In this document: positions 18,491 through 47,563 of the stretch, one piece after another
Position numbering within the stretch: position 1 is the first letter of the stretch
How the letters are laid out: each line of letters opens with the position of its first letter
Origin: a virus
Virus record (IMG/VR): IMGVR_UViG_3300046804_002503
Span: 32,001-96,000 of that record
DNA: 64,000 bases
Reading direction: 5' to 3' (one strand)
Program-made: the position numbers and the translations under genes
Notes under the pieces: model-generated
Databases searched by the model: none
Told to the model about the DNA's origin: nothing
What the model saw: only the letters and a program-made list of their open reading frames with translations

Positions 18491-19924
18491 TTACAGGTAG
18501 AGCTTGCCACTGGAATTGACGTTATCTGTTCCTAACCCCTTGACGATGATTAAGTGGTAGTAAAGGGAAGCGCCGAAGATGTAATCTACGACTCCGTAAC
18601 GGGTCATCAAGCCAACACGTGGCGAGAAGTCGTTAGGTCCGATTGTACGTTGAATCATCACAGGAATGTATGGGCAGTATACGATACCAGTATCATAGTA
18701 CTCTGTTCCCTTGTAACCCAATAAGGCATACTCCAATTGAGAAGAGCGTGTGCCGGCCATGGTTTGAGCTTCTGTACGAGTGTCACGGTAGACTGTGAAA
18801 CGTCCGCCAACTGAACCAACTTTGGCAATGCCGGTTGGTTGTGTGTTAACGTTGCCGTTTACAGGCATCCATTGAAACTCTGGCAACATCTCAAGAATCG
18901 CGCAGACGCGAGGTGTAGCAACGATAAAGTTGGCGGAACCTCTGCGGTTACGGATAGCGATGCGGTTTGCTTCAACGATTACCTTGGAATAGAAGTCGCG
19001 ATTACGCTCTCCTAACCAACGGGCATCAGCTGAAGCTGCATACCAGAAACTATACCCAGTACCTTGTTGCGCATTAATACAAATTTGAAGCATTCTGATG
19101 ATCATTTCACGGTCGATTTCGGCCTGAATTTCATAGCTCATCGCATTTGTTAATTCAGAATCGATATCGAGACCGTTCATGTTCTTCAAATCTTGCTCTA
19201 ATTCAACTGACCAGCGAGCTGCTAAACGGCGGGTGCCGGCTTCAACTGCGGTTTTGCTGAATTCAACAGTGATTTGAGGAATGTTACCAGTCAACTCAAA
19301 TTGGCTCAAGAGGGCAGCAATACCTTTATCCTCGTTTACGAAGTCGAAGTGTGTAGACAACCCAGTGAGTTGGCCTGAACTTGTTCCAGTAAAGCGAGTG
19401 TCGAGGCTTTGATAACCTAATTCGCCAGTGATGCCTGCTCTATTGAAGGCTCCGGTTGTGGTACTGCCGTTGGCATAACCATCAAGACCGTTAGCTCCCA
19501 ATGAAGTGGGCTCGTATTTATAACGCAAAGCAAATGCTAATCCAACTGGACCACTCATTGGTTGAACGCCAACGATTTCGTTGGTGATCAATTCAGGGAA
19601 GGTCCTGCGAACCATGGGGATTAAAACTTTAGGCAAACGATGATCGTTAGAAGCGTATGTGTCGGAAGCATACAAAGCACCGGCGTTAGCGCCTGTACCT
19701 GCAGAACCGAATATACCACCACCACCGACCGAGTTTTGAGCCTCGTTCAAACACCATTGTTCTTGGTTCTCCATCAAAATCGCCGTAGCTAAACGACCGT
19801 GTTCGCTCTCAATAGGGTTAACCTTATTGGACGAAAAGTCCAAAATGGGTGCCCACTTTTCGAGCAATTGGGACGCACGAGCTTGGTTGATGTATCCTGG
19901 AGAAGGACTAATATTGTTACTCAT
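18491..19924 (-). CDS. gp23: Major capsid protein
   Basis: LEKWAPIL, VGVQPMSGPVGLAFALR, SVELEQDLK, EIDRE, YCPYIP, GLMTRYG. Confidence 0.97.
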   Translation of the reverse strand: MSNNISPSPGYINQARASQLLEKWAPILDFSSNKVNPIESEHGRLATAILMENQEQWCLNEAQNSVGGGGIFGSAGTGANAGALYASDTYASNDHRLPKVLIPMVRRTFPELITNEIVGVQPMSGPVGLAFALRYKYEPTSLGANGLDGYANGSTTTGAFNRAGITGELGYQSLDTRFTGTSSGQLTGLSTHFDFVNEDKGIAALLSQFELTGNIPQITVEFSKTAVEAGTRRLAARWSVELEQDLKNMNGLDIDSELTNAMSYEIQAEIDREMIIRMLQICINAQQGTGYSFWYAASADARWLGERNRDFYSKVIVEANRIAIRNRRGSANFIVATPRVCAILEMLPEFQWMPVNGNVNTQPTGIAKVGSVGGRFTVYRDTRTEAQTMAGTRSSQLEYALLGYKGTEYYDTGIVYCPYIPVMIQRTIGPNDFSPRVGLMTRYGVVDYIFGASLYYHLIIVKGLGTDNVNSSGKLYL

Positions 19925-20878: not shown

Positions 20879-21094
20879 TTATTTATTCTTCTTAGGAGCC
20901 ATTTTAGATGATTTCTTTTTGTCATCTTTTTTAGCATCTTTTTTGGGATTCTTTTTGGCAGACTTGGCTGCTATTTTTTTAATTTTTTCTTTCATCTTTG
21001 CTTCGATGATTGTAGAAAGAGTATTGTGAGCAAACGCATACTGTTTTTCACAAATTTGAGCTATAAATTTTGAAATCAATTGATGGCTGTTCAT
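20879..21094 (-). CDS. Small prohead core-type protein with Lys-rich tail
   Basis: 71 aa in the head module, late motif at 21109-21115. Confidence 0.55.
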   Translation of the reverse strand: MNSHQLISKFIAQICEKQYAFAHNTLSTIIEAKMKEKIKKIAAKSAKKNPKKDAKKDDKKKSSKMAPKKNK

Positions 21095-21127: not shown

Positions 21128-21805
21128 CTACTCTGCATTTTTTAATGCATTAATAAAAGAAATAATTTGTTCTTTTAAATAAAAGTCTAAATTCTTTTTT
21201 GGTAAGGTTTTAATAGACTTTTCAAATTTTTCATAAACAGGCAAAAATTCTCCTTTGTCGTCTAATACCCATTGTTTGGATTCTAAAATACCATTTACAA
21301 AAGCTGTAGGTACAGAGGGGTCTGCTACTACGTCTACTGCTACAATTCTAAAGTCTGCTACTTTATTAACTCCACTTTTGTCTGGTACTAATCTACCTAA
21401 AGATCTGCTAGACACTCCTAATTTGACTCCATCTAAAATTAAGGATCGAACTAATTGACCCATTGCATTGGATAATATTTTAGATTTGCCTTCAAAAATA
21501 TTTCCATTTTGTTTAATGTCTGTAATAAGATGACAAACTCTTTCCAAATTAATATCTGGAGTTTGTGGGTGATTTAATTCACCAGTTGCTCGGTTCTGGG
21601 TAATCATTTCTGTGCGATAACGATCTACCTCTTTTACCATTTCCTCTAATGGATAAATTCTTTTGTTTTTATTAGTTTCATTCGCCATTAAAAATGGTCC
21701 TTGAATGAACATATTAGAAGGAGTATTACGATTTTTTTCTTCTACCAAATATTTTACCTCGTATGTGGGCTCTTCTACTAGTAAACGATAGACATTATCA
21801 CTCAT
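21128..21805 (-). CDS. gp21: Prohead protease
   Basis: NKNKRIYP, GELNHP, LGVSSRSLG, DVVADPSVPTAFV. Confidence 0.93.
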   Translation of the reverse strand: MSDNVYRLLVEEPTYEVKYLVEEKNRNTPSNMFIQGPFLMANETNKNKRIYPLEEMVKEVDRYRTEMITQNRATGELNHPQTPDINLERVCHLITDIKQNGNIFEGKSKILSNAMGQLVRSLILDGVKLGVSSRSLGRLVPDKSGVNKVADFRIVAVDVVADPSVPTAFVNGILESKQWVLDDKGEFLPVYEKFEKSIKTLPKKNLDFYLKEQIISFINALKNAE

Positions 21806-31513: not shown

Positions 31514-32085
31514 TAAATTACTTTTGTGGTAGCTATGAAACAATCTTTTAAAATGTTTTCAAAGATAGCTTTAACGTCTTCTGCGAATGATTTTGTATCT
31601 GCTTCTGATAAAAATAAAGAAAATGCAAAGGAAGGTGCTTTAGGACCTGCTGAAATATTAATTCCTAAATGACCCAAAGCTACATTTTCTGAGACTTTGG
31701 TAATACTAACACTAGCTTTACCAAAGGTTTCCATACCACTCTTTTTTAACATTAAATCATCACCTCTTACCTCTACATCATAAAGGCCGTATGTCTTTTT
31801 TCGTAGCAAATTTGCTATTTCCTGAACAAAAAGTCTTTGAAAAAATACTGCTCCGATTGGGTTCATGTTAGGAATTTCCCAACAAAAATTTAATGCATCA
31901 TCTGAATAGATAAAATCATTATTAATTTTATCTTCTAGATCTATCAGATTGTCTGTCACATTCATTACACCTCTAGTAATATATAAAAATCCTAAAGGAG
32001 AATTGCCTATATCTTTGTGTACTAATTTATAGGCAAATCTTTGATGTATTAAAGAACCGTCATAATCTTCTTTTACGTAACTCAT
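31513..32085 (-). CDS. DUF366-like protein (biotin/lipoate-ligase fold)
   Basis: YDGSLI, DLED, FQRL, GDDL, KASVSI, HLGINI motifs. Confidence 0.65.
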   Translation of the reverse strand: MSYVKEDYDGSLIHQRFAYKLVHKDIGNSPLGFLYITRGVMNVTDNLIDLEDKINNDFIYSDDALNFCWEIPNMNPIGAVFFQRLFVQEIANLLRKKTYGLYDVEVRGDDLMLKKSGMETFGKASVSITKVSENVALGHLGINISAGPKAPSFAFSLFLSEADTKSFAEDVKAIFENILKDCFIATTKVI

Positions 32086-36732: not shown

Positions 36733-36761
36733 AGTATATAGTAATTTTATTCTTGAATCAA
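36733..36761 (-). promoter_or_regulatory. Sigma70-like promoter for primase
   Basis: TTGATT-17 nt-TATACT-6 nt-ATG. Confidence 0.55.
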
Positions 36762-37694
36762 GCTCTTAGATTTAAAAATATTTGAATAAATGTTTTTAAA
36801 ATCTACACTATCTTCTAAAGGAGATCTAGCTGTCATACCACCCATAGACATTCTTTGTAACCTTGATAATTCAGCTTGTTGAGCACGGTCTAAATCTGCT
36901 GCTGCATCCTCTTCATCACCTAATTCATCTAAAGTAGAACCAGAGGCAGAACGTGGAACTGCTATCCACCCTTCATCTGTTCTCTTAACTAATCCTTTTC
37001 TGCCCAATTCTGCTGCGATACTTCTTAAATAAGATTTAATAGAAGCATCAGATTCAGAATGCTGAGAGGGGATTAAAGATCTATCTATTTTAGACACTAA
37101 TTCATTGTTTTCTAATGGACCTTCTGCTTCAATAAGATCTAATAAAGTTTGCTGCAAATCAGTAAGGTCTAATTCGGCTCCTTCTGTATCAGAAAATTCT
37201 CCGGAAGCCTTTGGTTCTGGTTCTGATTCTTTTGATTCTGGCTCTTCGGAGGCTTCTGGAGCTTCTTCTGTACTAGATTCTGGTGAATCTGTAATTTCTG
37301 GAACTTCTGAATCTTCAAATTCTTCTGGTTCACCTTGACCATCATTTACTTCTGAAGGTTTTTCTGGTTTAAATCCGAAATCAAAGATAGTCTGGCTAAG
37401 GGTTCTAGTCCAATATTCTGCTGCAGTACCTCCAAATCCTCTATTTCTAAGAAAAGTTCTAATAGAATCTTTTAATTCCTGATAATCTATTTCAGAATTG
37501 GCTCTGTCTTTTAAAAATTCTCCTAGATATTGAAGCATTTGTGCTCCTGTATATTTTCCAGCTTGTCCACCAAACTTTTCTTTACTAGCAAATGCTGGAG
37601 ATTTTAAAACTTCACCGGGAATACCTACTCCACCTCGTTTAGGAGCAGCCATTTCTTCTAAAGTACTTTCGCAAATATTGTCAAATAAACTCAT
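36747..37694 (-). CDS. Acidic hypothetical protein with winged-helix-like C-terminal part; candidate internal head protein
   Basis: MSLFDNICESTLEEMA leader, E/P/S linker, late motif at 37701-37708. Confidence 0.6.
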   Translation of the reverse strand: MSLFDNICESTLEEMAAPKRGGVGIPGEVLKSPAFASKEKFGGQAGKYTGAQMLQYLGEFLKDRANSEIDYQELKDSIRTFLRNRGFGGTAAEYWTRTLSQTIFDFGFKPEKPSEVNDGQGEPEEFEDSEVPEITDSPESSTEEAPEASEEPESKESEPEPKASGEFSDTEGAELDLTDLQQTLLDLIEAEGPLENNELVSKIDRSLIPSQHSESDASIKSYLRSIAAELGRKGLVKRTDEGWIAVPRSASGSTLDELGDEEDAAADLDRAQQAELSRLQRMSMGGMTARSPLEDSVDFKNIYSNIFKSKSLIQE

Positions 37695-46494: not shown

Positions 46495-46917
46495 TTAAAA
46501 ATTGTCAACGGTAAAATTTTTAGGGGGTCTACCAATTCTTACGTTGATTATACCATTGTAATATTCCAGCTTGAATAAAACATCCCTTAAAATTTGTTCT
46601 TTTATTTCAAAATAAGCTAATTCCCATTTACTACCACAAGTTTTAATAATGGTAAAAGTAAAATGTTCTTTACCCAGCCGTAAAATGTCTTCGTTGACTT
46701 TATCAGAAGAACTAGTATAAAATTTCCAATCAGATTCTTTGAAGTCTATCCTGTTGCGTTTTTTACCTTTTAAAGGTTTGCGTTTAACTTTAGAAAAACA
46801 TTGTTTTTTGCCTATATAATATTTGTTTTCCTTAATGTTATGTATTTCATATATAAACCCAAAGGTATCTTCAGTTAATACTACTCCTTCTTTGAGTTGC
46901 CAGTGGCCGGTTTCCAT
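46495..46917 (-). CDS. GIY-YIG-like protein of T4-like phages
   Basis: GFIY...YIGKK, ESDWKFYTSS, YYNGII. Confidence 0.7.
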   Translation of the reverse strand: METGHWQLKEGVVLTEDTFGFIYEIHNIKENKYYIGKKQCFSKVKRKPLKGKKRNRIDFKESDWKFYTSSSDKVNEDILRLGKEHFTFTIIKTCGSKWELAYFEIKEQILRDVLFKLEYYNGIINVRIGRPPKNFTVDNF

Positions 46918-47147
46918 ATTGTTTCAGGGAATGTTCTCCTAATTATGGGTGTTTTTTTCTTTTTCACCTTTTTCTTTCCTTTCTTAACCACATCTTTACC
47001 AGCTATAGCCATAGTTTTATAGGTACTTTCTTGCCCAAAAGCTTCCGGGTTGCCATATACATTAGCTACACCAAATACTCCACCAGCTCCGGCGGTGTTC
47101 ATATTTTCTAATACTTGCTCTATTAAAAGTTGAAAAAAGTTAGACAT
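46881..47147 (-). CDS. 88-aa protein resembling the gp23 N-terminal arm, with a poly-Lys insert
   Basis: Ungapped similarity to gp23 aa 61-90 and shared PxxRRTFPExI; late motif at 47166-47173. Confidence 0.7.
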   Translation of the reverse strand: MSNFFQLLIEQVLENMNTAGAGGVFGVANVYGNPEAFGQESTYKTMAIAGKDVVKKGKKKVKKKKTPIIRRTFPETIWKPATGNSKKE

Positions 47148-47170
47148 ATAGGATTATTATTAAAATATTT

Positions 47171-47563
47171 ATGTTGGACTTAAATCGTTTAAGTGAAGAA
47201 TTAAAAGAGGATACCAGAATAGATGAATTAAATCTTCTTCAAAAACAATTAATGTTGCCTGGTATTAAACATAAATGGGTTGCTCGTTTAATTACTGAAA
47301 AGAGACATTTAAATTCTTTAATAAGAAAGAAGAAAGTAGCTAAAGCAGCTGTATTATCTTCTTTAAATGATATTCCACCTGGCATTCCTAAAGCTTCTTT
47401 AGAAAAGAAAATTGATGCCTCAGATACTATACAAAAAATAGATCAAGAAATTGAAGATACTCAAACTATAATTGAGTATCTAGAAAAAGTAGAACAAATT
47501 TTTCGTTCTATGACCTATGATATTAAAAATATTATAGATATTAATCGTCTGGAGACGACATAA
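47171..47563 (+). CDS. uvsY: Recombination mediator UvsY-like
   Basis: DTRIDE..L....L.LP..KHKW; IEYLE....TYDIKNII; directly before UvsW. Confidence 0.75.
   Translation: MLDLNRLSEELKEDTRIDELNLLQKQLMLPGIKHKWVARLITEKRHLNSLIRKKKVAKAAVLSSLNDIPPGIPKASLEKKIDASDTIQKIDQEIEDTQTIIEYLEKVEQIFRSMTYDIKNIIDINRLETT

Follow-up and report, generated by a model that had tools for sequence, protein, structure and literature searches.

Why a T4-like phage should carry, far from its head genes, a second and much abbreviated copy of the beginning of its own mature capsid protein is the question raised by a small open reading frame (ORF) in the virus record IMGVR_UViG_3300046804_002503. The stretch of DNA analysed, referred to here as the window, comprises 64,000 nucleotides (nt; positions 32,001 to 96,000 of that record) and encodes a gp23 major capsid protein (18491..19924, minus strand; Pfam Gp23, expect value (E) 5.4e-87), a T4-type portal and a prohead protease of the S77 family. 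The small ORF occupies 46881..47147 on the minus strand as an ATG-started frame of 88 codons, and its product of 88 amino acids (aa), with an isoelectric point (pI) of 10.0, is composed of a leader, a copy of the gp23 arm, a poly-Lys tract, a strand carrying RRTFPE and a short tail. Profile comparison has shown that this gene arose by partial duplication of gp23, in a segment running from the last propeptide codons through the presumed maturation site and the mature N-terminal arm to RRTFPE, and the family to which it belongs probably rides inside the head of uncultured T4-like phages.

A partial duplicate of gp23

The resemblance can be followed within the phage itself. Residues 14-43 of the small protein align without a gap to gp23 residues 61-90, with 12 of 30 positions identical, and PIIRRTFPETI at residues 67-77 (46917..46949, minus strand), a second block recovered by both BLASTP and Smith-Waterman alignment, shares eight of eleven residues with PMVRRTFPELI at gp23 103-113. 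Between the two blocks BLASTP opens a gap of 11 residues in gp23, which faces the Lys tract KKGKKKVKKKK (residues 55-65; 46953..46985, minus strand), an insertion falling between RLPKVL and IPMVRR of the capsid protein. The arm copy that precedes it (residues 15-51, NMNTAGAGGVFG...AGK; 46995..47105, minus strand) is homologous to the start of mature gp23 according to BLASTP, hhalign and Smith-Waterman alike. The leader (residues 1-14, MSNFFQLLIEQVLE; 47106..47147, minus strand) is a predicted helix ending in V-L-E and is paired by hhalign with the final residues of the gp23 propeptide; judged from AlphaFold2, hhalign and the leader statistics of the family, it is a putative propeptide that the prohead protease would take off. 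The window pair by itself reaches E 0.02 in BLASTP. Its Smith-Waterman score is 86; shuffling the small protein 5000 times gave a mean of 29.8 (standard deviation 4.4), a maximum of 56 and not one score as high. Among the 53 ORFs of 150 aa or more in the window, gp23 scores best, ahead of a second-placed ORF at 41.

A profile of six close homologues found one other match in the 125.7-kilobase (kb) record, namely gp23 (E 0.009), while a profile of 20 family members (A3) matched the gp23 frames of five out of five other records (E 4.2e-12 to 9.6e-10). When A3 was compared by hhalign with 27 gp23 sequences of the clade (A5), residues 4-83 of the small protein were equated with gp23 50-118 at a probability of 98.8% (E 6.6e-17), and in all five long records A3 matched exactly two places, the small gene and gp23. 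It is because of the hhalign link, the gp23 matches in the five further records and the restriction to two matches in the long ones that a partial-duplicate origin is concluded. The parental segment, gp23 residues 50-118 (19571..19777, minus strand; placed with Pfam, hhalign and HMMER), takes in the propeptide end with the putative cleavage site L-N-E(61) and continues into the mature N-terminus up to RRTFPELITNEIV. Homology spans this segment only and PF07068 begins at gp23 residue 99, so that with respect to the Gp23 family (PF07068) the small protein has the homology of the N-terminal region (propeptide end, cleavage site and arm) and lacks the HK97-fold body. In the phages recovered with a DNA pattern of the glycine motif (described below) the likeness is far stronger than in the window; in locus L030, for example, the small protein reads DNTAGPGGVFGAGPSIGTIFNPPGTISSGDGYAPGDARIP and the gp23 of the same contig DNTAASGGVFGSGTSIGASFNPPGKITAGDDYAKGDARLP.

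The original prediction, made from the letters of the window, had described a mini-paralogue of the gp23 segment around its maturation site, lying 27 kb from gp23 and consisting of an ungapped block, the RRTFPE block and an 11-residue Lys insert. The frame, both blocks, the insert and the distance are all borne out, the alignment withstands the shuffling that had been proposed for it, and the paralogue has proved genuine, conserved and selected, as judged from hhalign and from the substitution rates given below. The similarity had further been said to start exactly at the cleavage Glu, a point which requires correction, as it begins about 10 residues before the putative Glu. Scanned directly, the small ORF has no Pfam family, its sole PHROGs match is phrog_5070 (function unknown, at a marginal E of 0.025), and its matches in a protein atlas are unnamed viral clusters only; within these Pfam and PHROGs scans no relation to IPI, IPII, IPIII or other described internal proteins appeared. 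AlphaFold2 models the protein alone at low confidence (mean predicted local distance difference test score 62.8), with a leader helix at residues 4-16 as its sole element.

Anatomy, selection and co-variation of the family

A word-indexed search has yielded five close homologues of 82-88 aa and 63-97% identity, all of which retain the L-E-N site, AGxGGVFG, the Lys tract and RTFPE. At least 119 viral contigs contain a degenerate DNA version of the AGxGGVFG motif, those listed including 25 gp23 genes and some 20 small genes. Among 1.84 billion cluster representatives (clusters defined at 50% identity), the A3 profile matches at least 422 proteins when the cut-off is E<=1e-3 and 108 when it is E<=1e-10. 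Patterns of the Lys tract and leader of the six close homologues revealed no relative when related loci were sought in viral contigs. No match was found among 50,697 phage records, either by tblastn with two family members, where the low-complexity filter may hide them, or by blastn with the 4-kb region; the record of Methylophilales phage Melnitz, which has a homologue of the neighbouring GIY-YIG gene, likewise gave no match at E<=10 to the small protein of locus L040. By gp23 the nearest cultured phages are cyanophages, at about 33% identity, compared with 66-78% for 25 of the 26 other clade sequences in A5, and the family is therefore known to date only from an uncultured clade.

Anatomy has been counted on the 154 family proteins in hand. 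Five parts are common to the members: a helical leader running to (L/I/V)-x-E, the arm copy, a poly-Lys/Arg tract, a strand of the form h-x-RR(TFPE), where h is hydrophobic, and often a fused domain, although most members are without such cargo and 123 of the 154 do not exceed 130 aa. Leaders are 10-23 aa long (mode 14), with hydrophobic positions in helix-like spacing. Among the 125 members that match the glycine-motif pattern (the remaining 29 did not), position P1 is Glu in 119, and P3 is Leu, Ile, Val, Met or Phe in 105 of those 119; the 14-residue leader of the window protein contains both L-I-E(10) and V-L-E(14). The arm copy follows the motif (D/N)N-x-AG-x-GGVFG, a variable stretch and then YAPGDAR(I/V)P-x-x-LG, of which the PGDARIP part has been lost in the subfamily of the window protein, and A19, G20, G22, G23, V24, F25 and G26 are invariant in the 20-member alignment. 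A 20-aa stretch with at least 10 Lys or Arg is present in 127 of the 154 proteins, and the median pI among short members is 10.2. The hydrophobic-x-RR strand is found in 87 and its extended form RR(T)F(P) in 28 of the 154, and a few members continue into a GMQGPS-like stretch parallel to GVQPMSGP in gp23. The basic insert and the (L/I/V)-x-E site, first picked out from the window protein alone, are accordingly kept by conserved homologues, the insert being a hallmark of the family.

The small gene is under purifying selection. Equal-length proteins of at least 75% identity formed 76 pairs, and in the 51 with a synonymous rate (dS) of 0.05-3 the ratio of nonsynonymous to synonymous rates (dN/dS) has a median of 0.08 and stays below 0.5 throughout, these pairs not being independent of one another. 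A decaying, functionless remnant of a partial gp23 duplication might be suspected from the shortness of the ORF and its 37-nt overlap with the next gene. Such an origin is contradicted by the dN/dS median and by the 422 cluster representatives, and the synonymous sites largely differ from those of the phage's own gp23 while the protein motifs are kept, leaving this explanation scarcely credible.

The arm copy also varies together with the capsid protein of the same phage, a check that had been proposed beforehand. Eight pairs of small gene and gp23 on one contig were available from 36 records searched, most contigs being fragments. Three mid-arm variants are seen, each in both genes of the same phage: GNQFPSQND (L131, L159, L175), F/Y-(N/S)-PPG..I..GD (L030, L070) and shorter forms in the remaining pairs; a further variant, SMGHGG, occurs in both gene types on separate contigs. 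The summed alignment scores of cognate pairs amount to 948 against a permutation mean of 699, a value reached by 47 of the 40320 permutations, which supports co-variation at the level of clades. Recent gene conversion has been considered as the source of this pattern and is argued against by the codons, since at identical residues the small gene and its gp23 use the same codon in only 5 of 16 to 11 of 23 cases (counts given without a chance expectation); the likeness therefore appears to be maintained in the protein sequence and not to reflect a conversion tract of recent date. Eight pairs do not distinguish co-evolution from an ancient conversion at the root of each clade with selection thereafter. 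As a separate observation, record G008 (L223/L140) encodes a divergent gp23, 48% identical to that of the window, which carries DFYAPGDARIP, a sequence otherwise typical of the small proteins.

Head entry, cleavage and competing explanations

The best explanation, to which a probability of about one half may be given, is that the small protein is a late internal head protein of the T4 type, which enters the prohead by mimicking the capsid N-terminus, is cut by the S77 protease and binds DNA. This reading is favoured because the protein combines a leader and site derived from gp23, a basic tract, a late-type box upstream, single-copy conservation and, in relatives, the carriage of other domains. 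The arm copy would be recruited beside the N-termini of gp23 at the scaffold and enclosed as the shell closes. The S77 prohead protease would then cut after V-L-E(14), just as L-N-E(61) would be its site in gp23, leaving a basic mature peptide of about 74 aa that would be retained in the head with its Lys tract bound to packaged DNA, and in relatives the module would bring extra domains into the head with it.

What is known of T4 provides the frame for this proposal. T4 gp21 cleaves after (L/I)-x-E and removes propeptides of 7-65 residues from head proteins (PMC9026906), gp23 losing 65 residues. The internal proteins (IPs) and Alt reach the core through short propeptides that gp21 takes off, and the first 10 residues of IPIII suffice (PMC9026906); in this 10-residue capsid targeting sequence (CTS), positions 4 and 7 serve targeting, and 8 and 10 processing (PMC9026906). 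The segment of T4 gp23 equivalent to the arm copy is flexible and, until the prohead expands, is found in its interior close to the scaffold (PMC9546572, PMC9958956), and the gp23 N-terminal segment is externalised upon expansion (PMC9546572). Because this segment is flexible and lies inside the prohead by the scaffolding core, recruitment of its copy beside gp23 N-termini is plausible, and co-recruitment with them at the scaffold surface is the likeliest reason for the mimicry.

A processing enzyme is at hand, as had been supposed, in the gp21-type prohead serine protease (Peptidase_S77, E 1.6e-26; 21128..21805, minus strand), which is presumed to act on both proteins. The gp23 of the clade aligns to T4 gp23 almost end to end (HMMER, E 2e-46), its RRTFPELI..GVQPM falling on the equivalent T4 block, and R106, R107, T108, F109 and P110 are invariant in the 27 clade sequences. 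Clade gp23 is probably cut after C-(L/F)-x-E, because no other Glu in the stretch from ENQE to the glycine motif comes close to being invariant. As a pattern only, the family leaders (10-23 aa, with Glu at P1 in 119 of 125) conform to a CTS-type propeptide ending in (L/I)-x-E, and 10-residue leaders, such as MKSFKQYILE of L040 with F4, Y7, I8 and E10, do so position by position.

The likeness to IPI, IPII, IPIII and Alt extends to general character. The T4 proteins are small and basic (Alt being an enzyme) and begin with a short propeptide ending in (L/I)-x-E, as is the case here (PMC9026906, PMC3012670). They enter the prohead core, are cut by gp21, stay with the DNA and are injected, and their leader can carry foreign cargo (PMC9026906, PMC3012670). 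Leaders of the family share the hydrophobic pattern, the 10-residue ones having aromatic residues at 4 and 7, Ile or Val at 8 and Glu at 10. Unlike the T4 proteins, those of this family copy the capsid N-terminus in their mature part and are encoded by one gene per genome and not by a set of genes sharing a leader.

Several points weigh against an internal head protein. T4 precedent does not account for a conserved mature arm, because a 10-residue leader alone suffices for targeting in T4 (PMC9026906); the arm would need a binding role before or after cleavage. The HMMER alignment to T4 gp23 is loose at the cleavage site, so that the clade site is itself deduced. A position-specific scoring matrix (PSSM) of the leader, applied to 142 ORFs of the record, gave 16.3 for the small ORF, 6.2 for the next and 11.0 for an internal-position control. 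The co-variation is clade-level, the cognate gp23 ranking first in two of eight cases, second in one and third in five, with the pair of the window itself third of eight. Expression, cleavage, packaging and DNA binding all rest on inference, and calling the fused domains cargo is partly an assumption, since Pfam leaves several of them unnamed.

The same scan was unsupportive of a leader shared with other ORFs of the 125.7-kb record, and as the PSSM singles out the small ORF, no set of proteins with one common targeting sequence is therefore indicated, as there is in T4. One other protein has been noted by eye, an acidic, low-complexity protein of 315 aa (36747-37694, minus strand) whose start, MSLFDNICESTLEE, is leader-like; its PSSM score of 5.3 lies within the control range and the resemblance is unproven.

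The conservation of the mature part raises a different possibility. Along the lines of the original prediction, the mature arm copy would fill arm-binding sites for which no gp23 neighbour is available, in portal-adjacent hexamers or at vertices, acting as a cement or plug while its Lys tract ties DNA to the wall. In mature T4 gp23 the N-fist (residues 66-91) and N-arm touch subunits within their own and the neighbouring capsomer (PMC9958956, PMC7136217), and five portal-facing fists are disordered (PMC7136217, PMC9958956). It is to the corresponding stretch in the gp23 of its own phage that the small protein is homologous (for the T4 structures: PMC9958956, PMC7136217, PMC9546572); unlike gp23, the small protein has no HK97-fold body, has poly-Lys where gp23 has LIPM and is encoded 27 kb away. 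Docking of this kind would explain why the mature part and not the leader alone is most conserved (A19, G20 and G22 to G26, invariant in 20), and variants held in common with the cognate gp23 arm would be expected if both touch the same shell surface. There is also no gp24 paralogue, one Gp23-family match being found in a record estimated to be 58% complete.

Each gp23, however, supplies its own arm, so that vacant sites would be few, and the T4 fist ends on the outer surface (PMC9958956), through which a copy would have to be threaded while its Lys tract stayed inside. The family is strongly basic and often has large fused domains, and a loose internal protein therefore fits better than a stoichiometric plug. 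By analogy with T4, the scaffold-side position of the segment gives an equally good or better reason for mimicry than docking in grooves, namely co-incorporation into the core. Complex prediction with two copies of gp23 120-477 and the small protein 15-88, both supplied as alignments, returned a score of 0.00 and bears neither way. Occupation of the shell is on balance doubtful. What stands of the earlier interpretation is the conserved and selected paralogue with its putative cleavage site, basic insert, co-variation and available protease, whereas its suggestion of a poison for the capsids of competing phages has found no support.

That the copy includes the cleavage site together with its P' side would also suit a regulator of assembly, competing with gp23 N-termini for scaffold, portal or protease as a mimic of a substrate or exosite and thereby setting head size, nucleation or the timing of maturation before being degraded or expelled. 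In T4, capsid length is influenced by the way in which the N-terminal region of gp23 touches the gp22 core (PMC9546572), and the gene is single-copy and syntenic, like a core morphogenesis gene. Such a regulator would leave the poly-Lys tract and the cargo fusions without a role and, in the window and the long records, the gene lies 27-83 kb away from the head gene cluster; this explanation is considered unlikely.

The fused domains of relatives suggest that the module serves to load the head and not to plug a vertex. They are optional and stand at the C-terminus, at the N-terminus or, as in L079/P0110, behind the leader and ahead of a second I-I-E site. Pfam identifies DUF192 in L079 (between leader and module, E 1.2e-29), DUF5661 in P0012, P0056 and P0126, and GNAT in P0030; an ART-PolyVal match in P0056 falls below the curated cut-off (19.9 against 31.2 bits). 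Several fused domains had no Pfam match (L070, L008, P0024, P0033, P0045, P0078, P0094, P0107, L173, L155, L168, L132, L147), one such domain having a DGNHR motif that is ParB-like by eye only, and that of L173 and L155 showing the pattern YRG...S-S-A-E-Y. In L079 (6337-6932, plus strand) and P0110 the DUF192 domain stands between a CTS-like leader (MITFKKYIEILE) and the second I-I-E site, which precedes the arm copy, and cutting at both sites would free the domain within the head. The DUF5661 segment, fused to the module in many members, is also found inside a gene annotated as DUF2213 of Vibrio phage vB_VpaM_VPs20 (28285-28416; H47/H48).

A comparison may be drawn with effectors fused to MuF or portal proteins and with polyvalent proteins, in which a head-associated module is joined to varied domains, enzymatic or of unknown function, whose delivery together with the DNA is presumed (Iyer et al., 2017, PMC5512222). 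DUF5661, GNAT and the weak ART-PolyVal match in fused family members are common ground, yet MuF and portal carriers are folded, whereas the carrier here is a capsid-arm copy of about 70 residues that is probably disordered, and 123 of 154 members do not exceed 130 aa. The window protein has no extra domain and does not itself combine two or more effector-type domains on one polypeptide in a virion-gene context, as polyvalent proteins do. More tentatively, the module may be a natural capsid address tag, a disordered copy of the capsid N-terminus that has stayed matched to its cognate capsid or scaffold in the course of evolution, which would suffice to load itself and any domain fused at either end into the head and would couple that load through poly-Lys to the DNA for injection; T4-like phages would then possess, besides the 10-residue CTS, another principle of targeting, in use throughout an uncultured clade.

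Locus, neighbouring genes and significance

The small gene keeps its surroundings across the clade. In 19 of 20 loci it lies divergently beside uvsY, which in the window (47171..47563, plus strand; PF11056, E 4.6e-09) begins 23 nt from the start of the small ORF, and in 17 of 20 it is followed by a GIY-YIG gene, the order in the window being the same. Within the first codons of uvsY lies a box resembling a T4 late promoter, CATAAATA (47166..47173, minus strand), which has seven of the eight bases of TATAAATA, in line with the late motif originally reported upstream of the ORF. Its ATAAATA begins 25 nt upstream of the small-ORF ATG, a spacing shared by the gp21 gene, whereas that of gp22 is 20 nt; among 60 unique family loci, 27 have ATAAATA 12-21 nt upstream of the chosen start. 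By analogy with T4, the box would be a late promoter.

Defences that sense capsids exist, and the small protein could in principle be a decoy that titrates a host sensor of the gp23 N-terminal region or disturbs the capsids of co-infecting phages, in which case co-variation with the cognate gp23 would be equally expected. A leader with a protease site, a late-type box, a tract resembling those that bind DNA and a conserved position throughout the clade are unlike known decoys, and the Pfam scan of the window showed no defence-related neighbour, so that this role appears very improbable.

The gene downstream (46495..46917, minus strand) overlaps the small ORF by 37 nt and encodes a SegE-like GIY-YIG protein of 140 aa (PF19835, E 3.7e-28). 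This protein consists of the SegE-type GIY-YIG domain alone and has homologues in 214 phage records, mostly Felixounavirus-like, with annotations that vary between NAD synthetase, homing endonuclease and hypothetical protein. Transport of the gp23 fragment by a homing endonuclease of this kind was considered and dropped, as a position conserved in 17 of 20 loci argues against recent mobile insertion; the gene acts as a conserved resident and not as a mobile one.

Some further observations concern the head genes themselves. Between the gp21 and gp22 genes, at the position of T4 gp67/gp68, lies an ORF of 71 aa (20879-21094, minus strand) whose product is rich in Lys in its C-terminal half, matches no Pfam family and may be a further basic protein of the core. 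In the 125.7-kb record (G000) no gp24-like gene comes after gp23, the single Gp23-family match; the vertex protein may be gp23 itself, or may be encoded in the missing 42%. The gp23 of L220 and L221 (records G006 and G010) aligns with that of the window as two segments, 1-390 and 388-475, that lie in a single open frame of 519 codons, an arrangement suggestive of some 20 residues inserted close to residue 390.

Functional analogies, which are without homology, can be found further afield in the cargo-loading peptides of encapsulins, short tags that bind the inner face of an HK97-fold shell, and in the adenovirus core proteins VII and mu, which are basic, condense DNA and are trimmed by the virion protease. 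Added domains aside, Pfam holds no family for the window protein or for 13 other members scanned, and no description of such a protein was found in the literature searched, subscription journals and supplements lying outside that search. If the best reading is right, for which the chances are about even, the family represents a new form of protease-processed internal head protein, one that owes its targeting or anchoring part to a copy of the capsid protein.

Of all parts of T4-like virions, the proteins inside the head are understood least, although no other phage proteins encounter the host sooner. The present family, defined by sequence and comprising hundreds of clusters, has a clear origin in partial duplication of the capsid gene around its maturation site, and its logic of capsid N-terminus mimicry, protease site and DNA-binding tract is testable. 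Were docking on the shell to prove true, no earlier capsid cement would have been derived from the arm of the capsid protein. If the arm copy places the protein in the head, it would explain how proteins are loaded in an abundant clade of uncultured T4-like phages, its fused partners would offer a handle on injected effectors, and it would provide a new tag for loading cargo into T4-like capsids.

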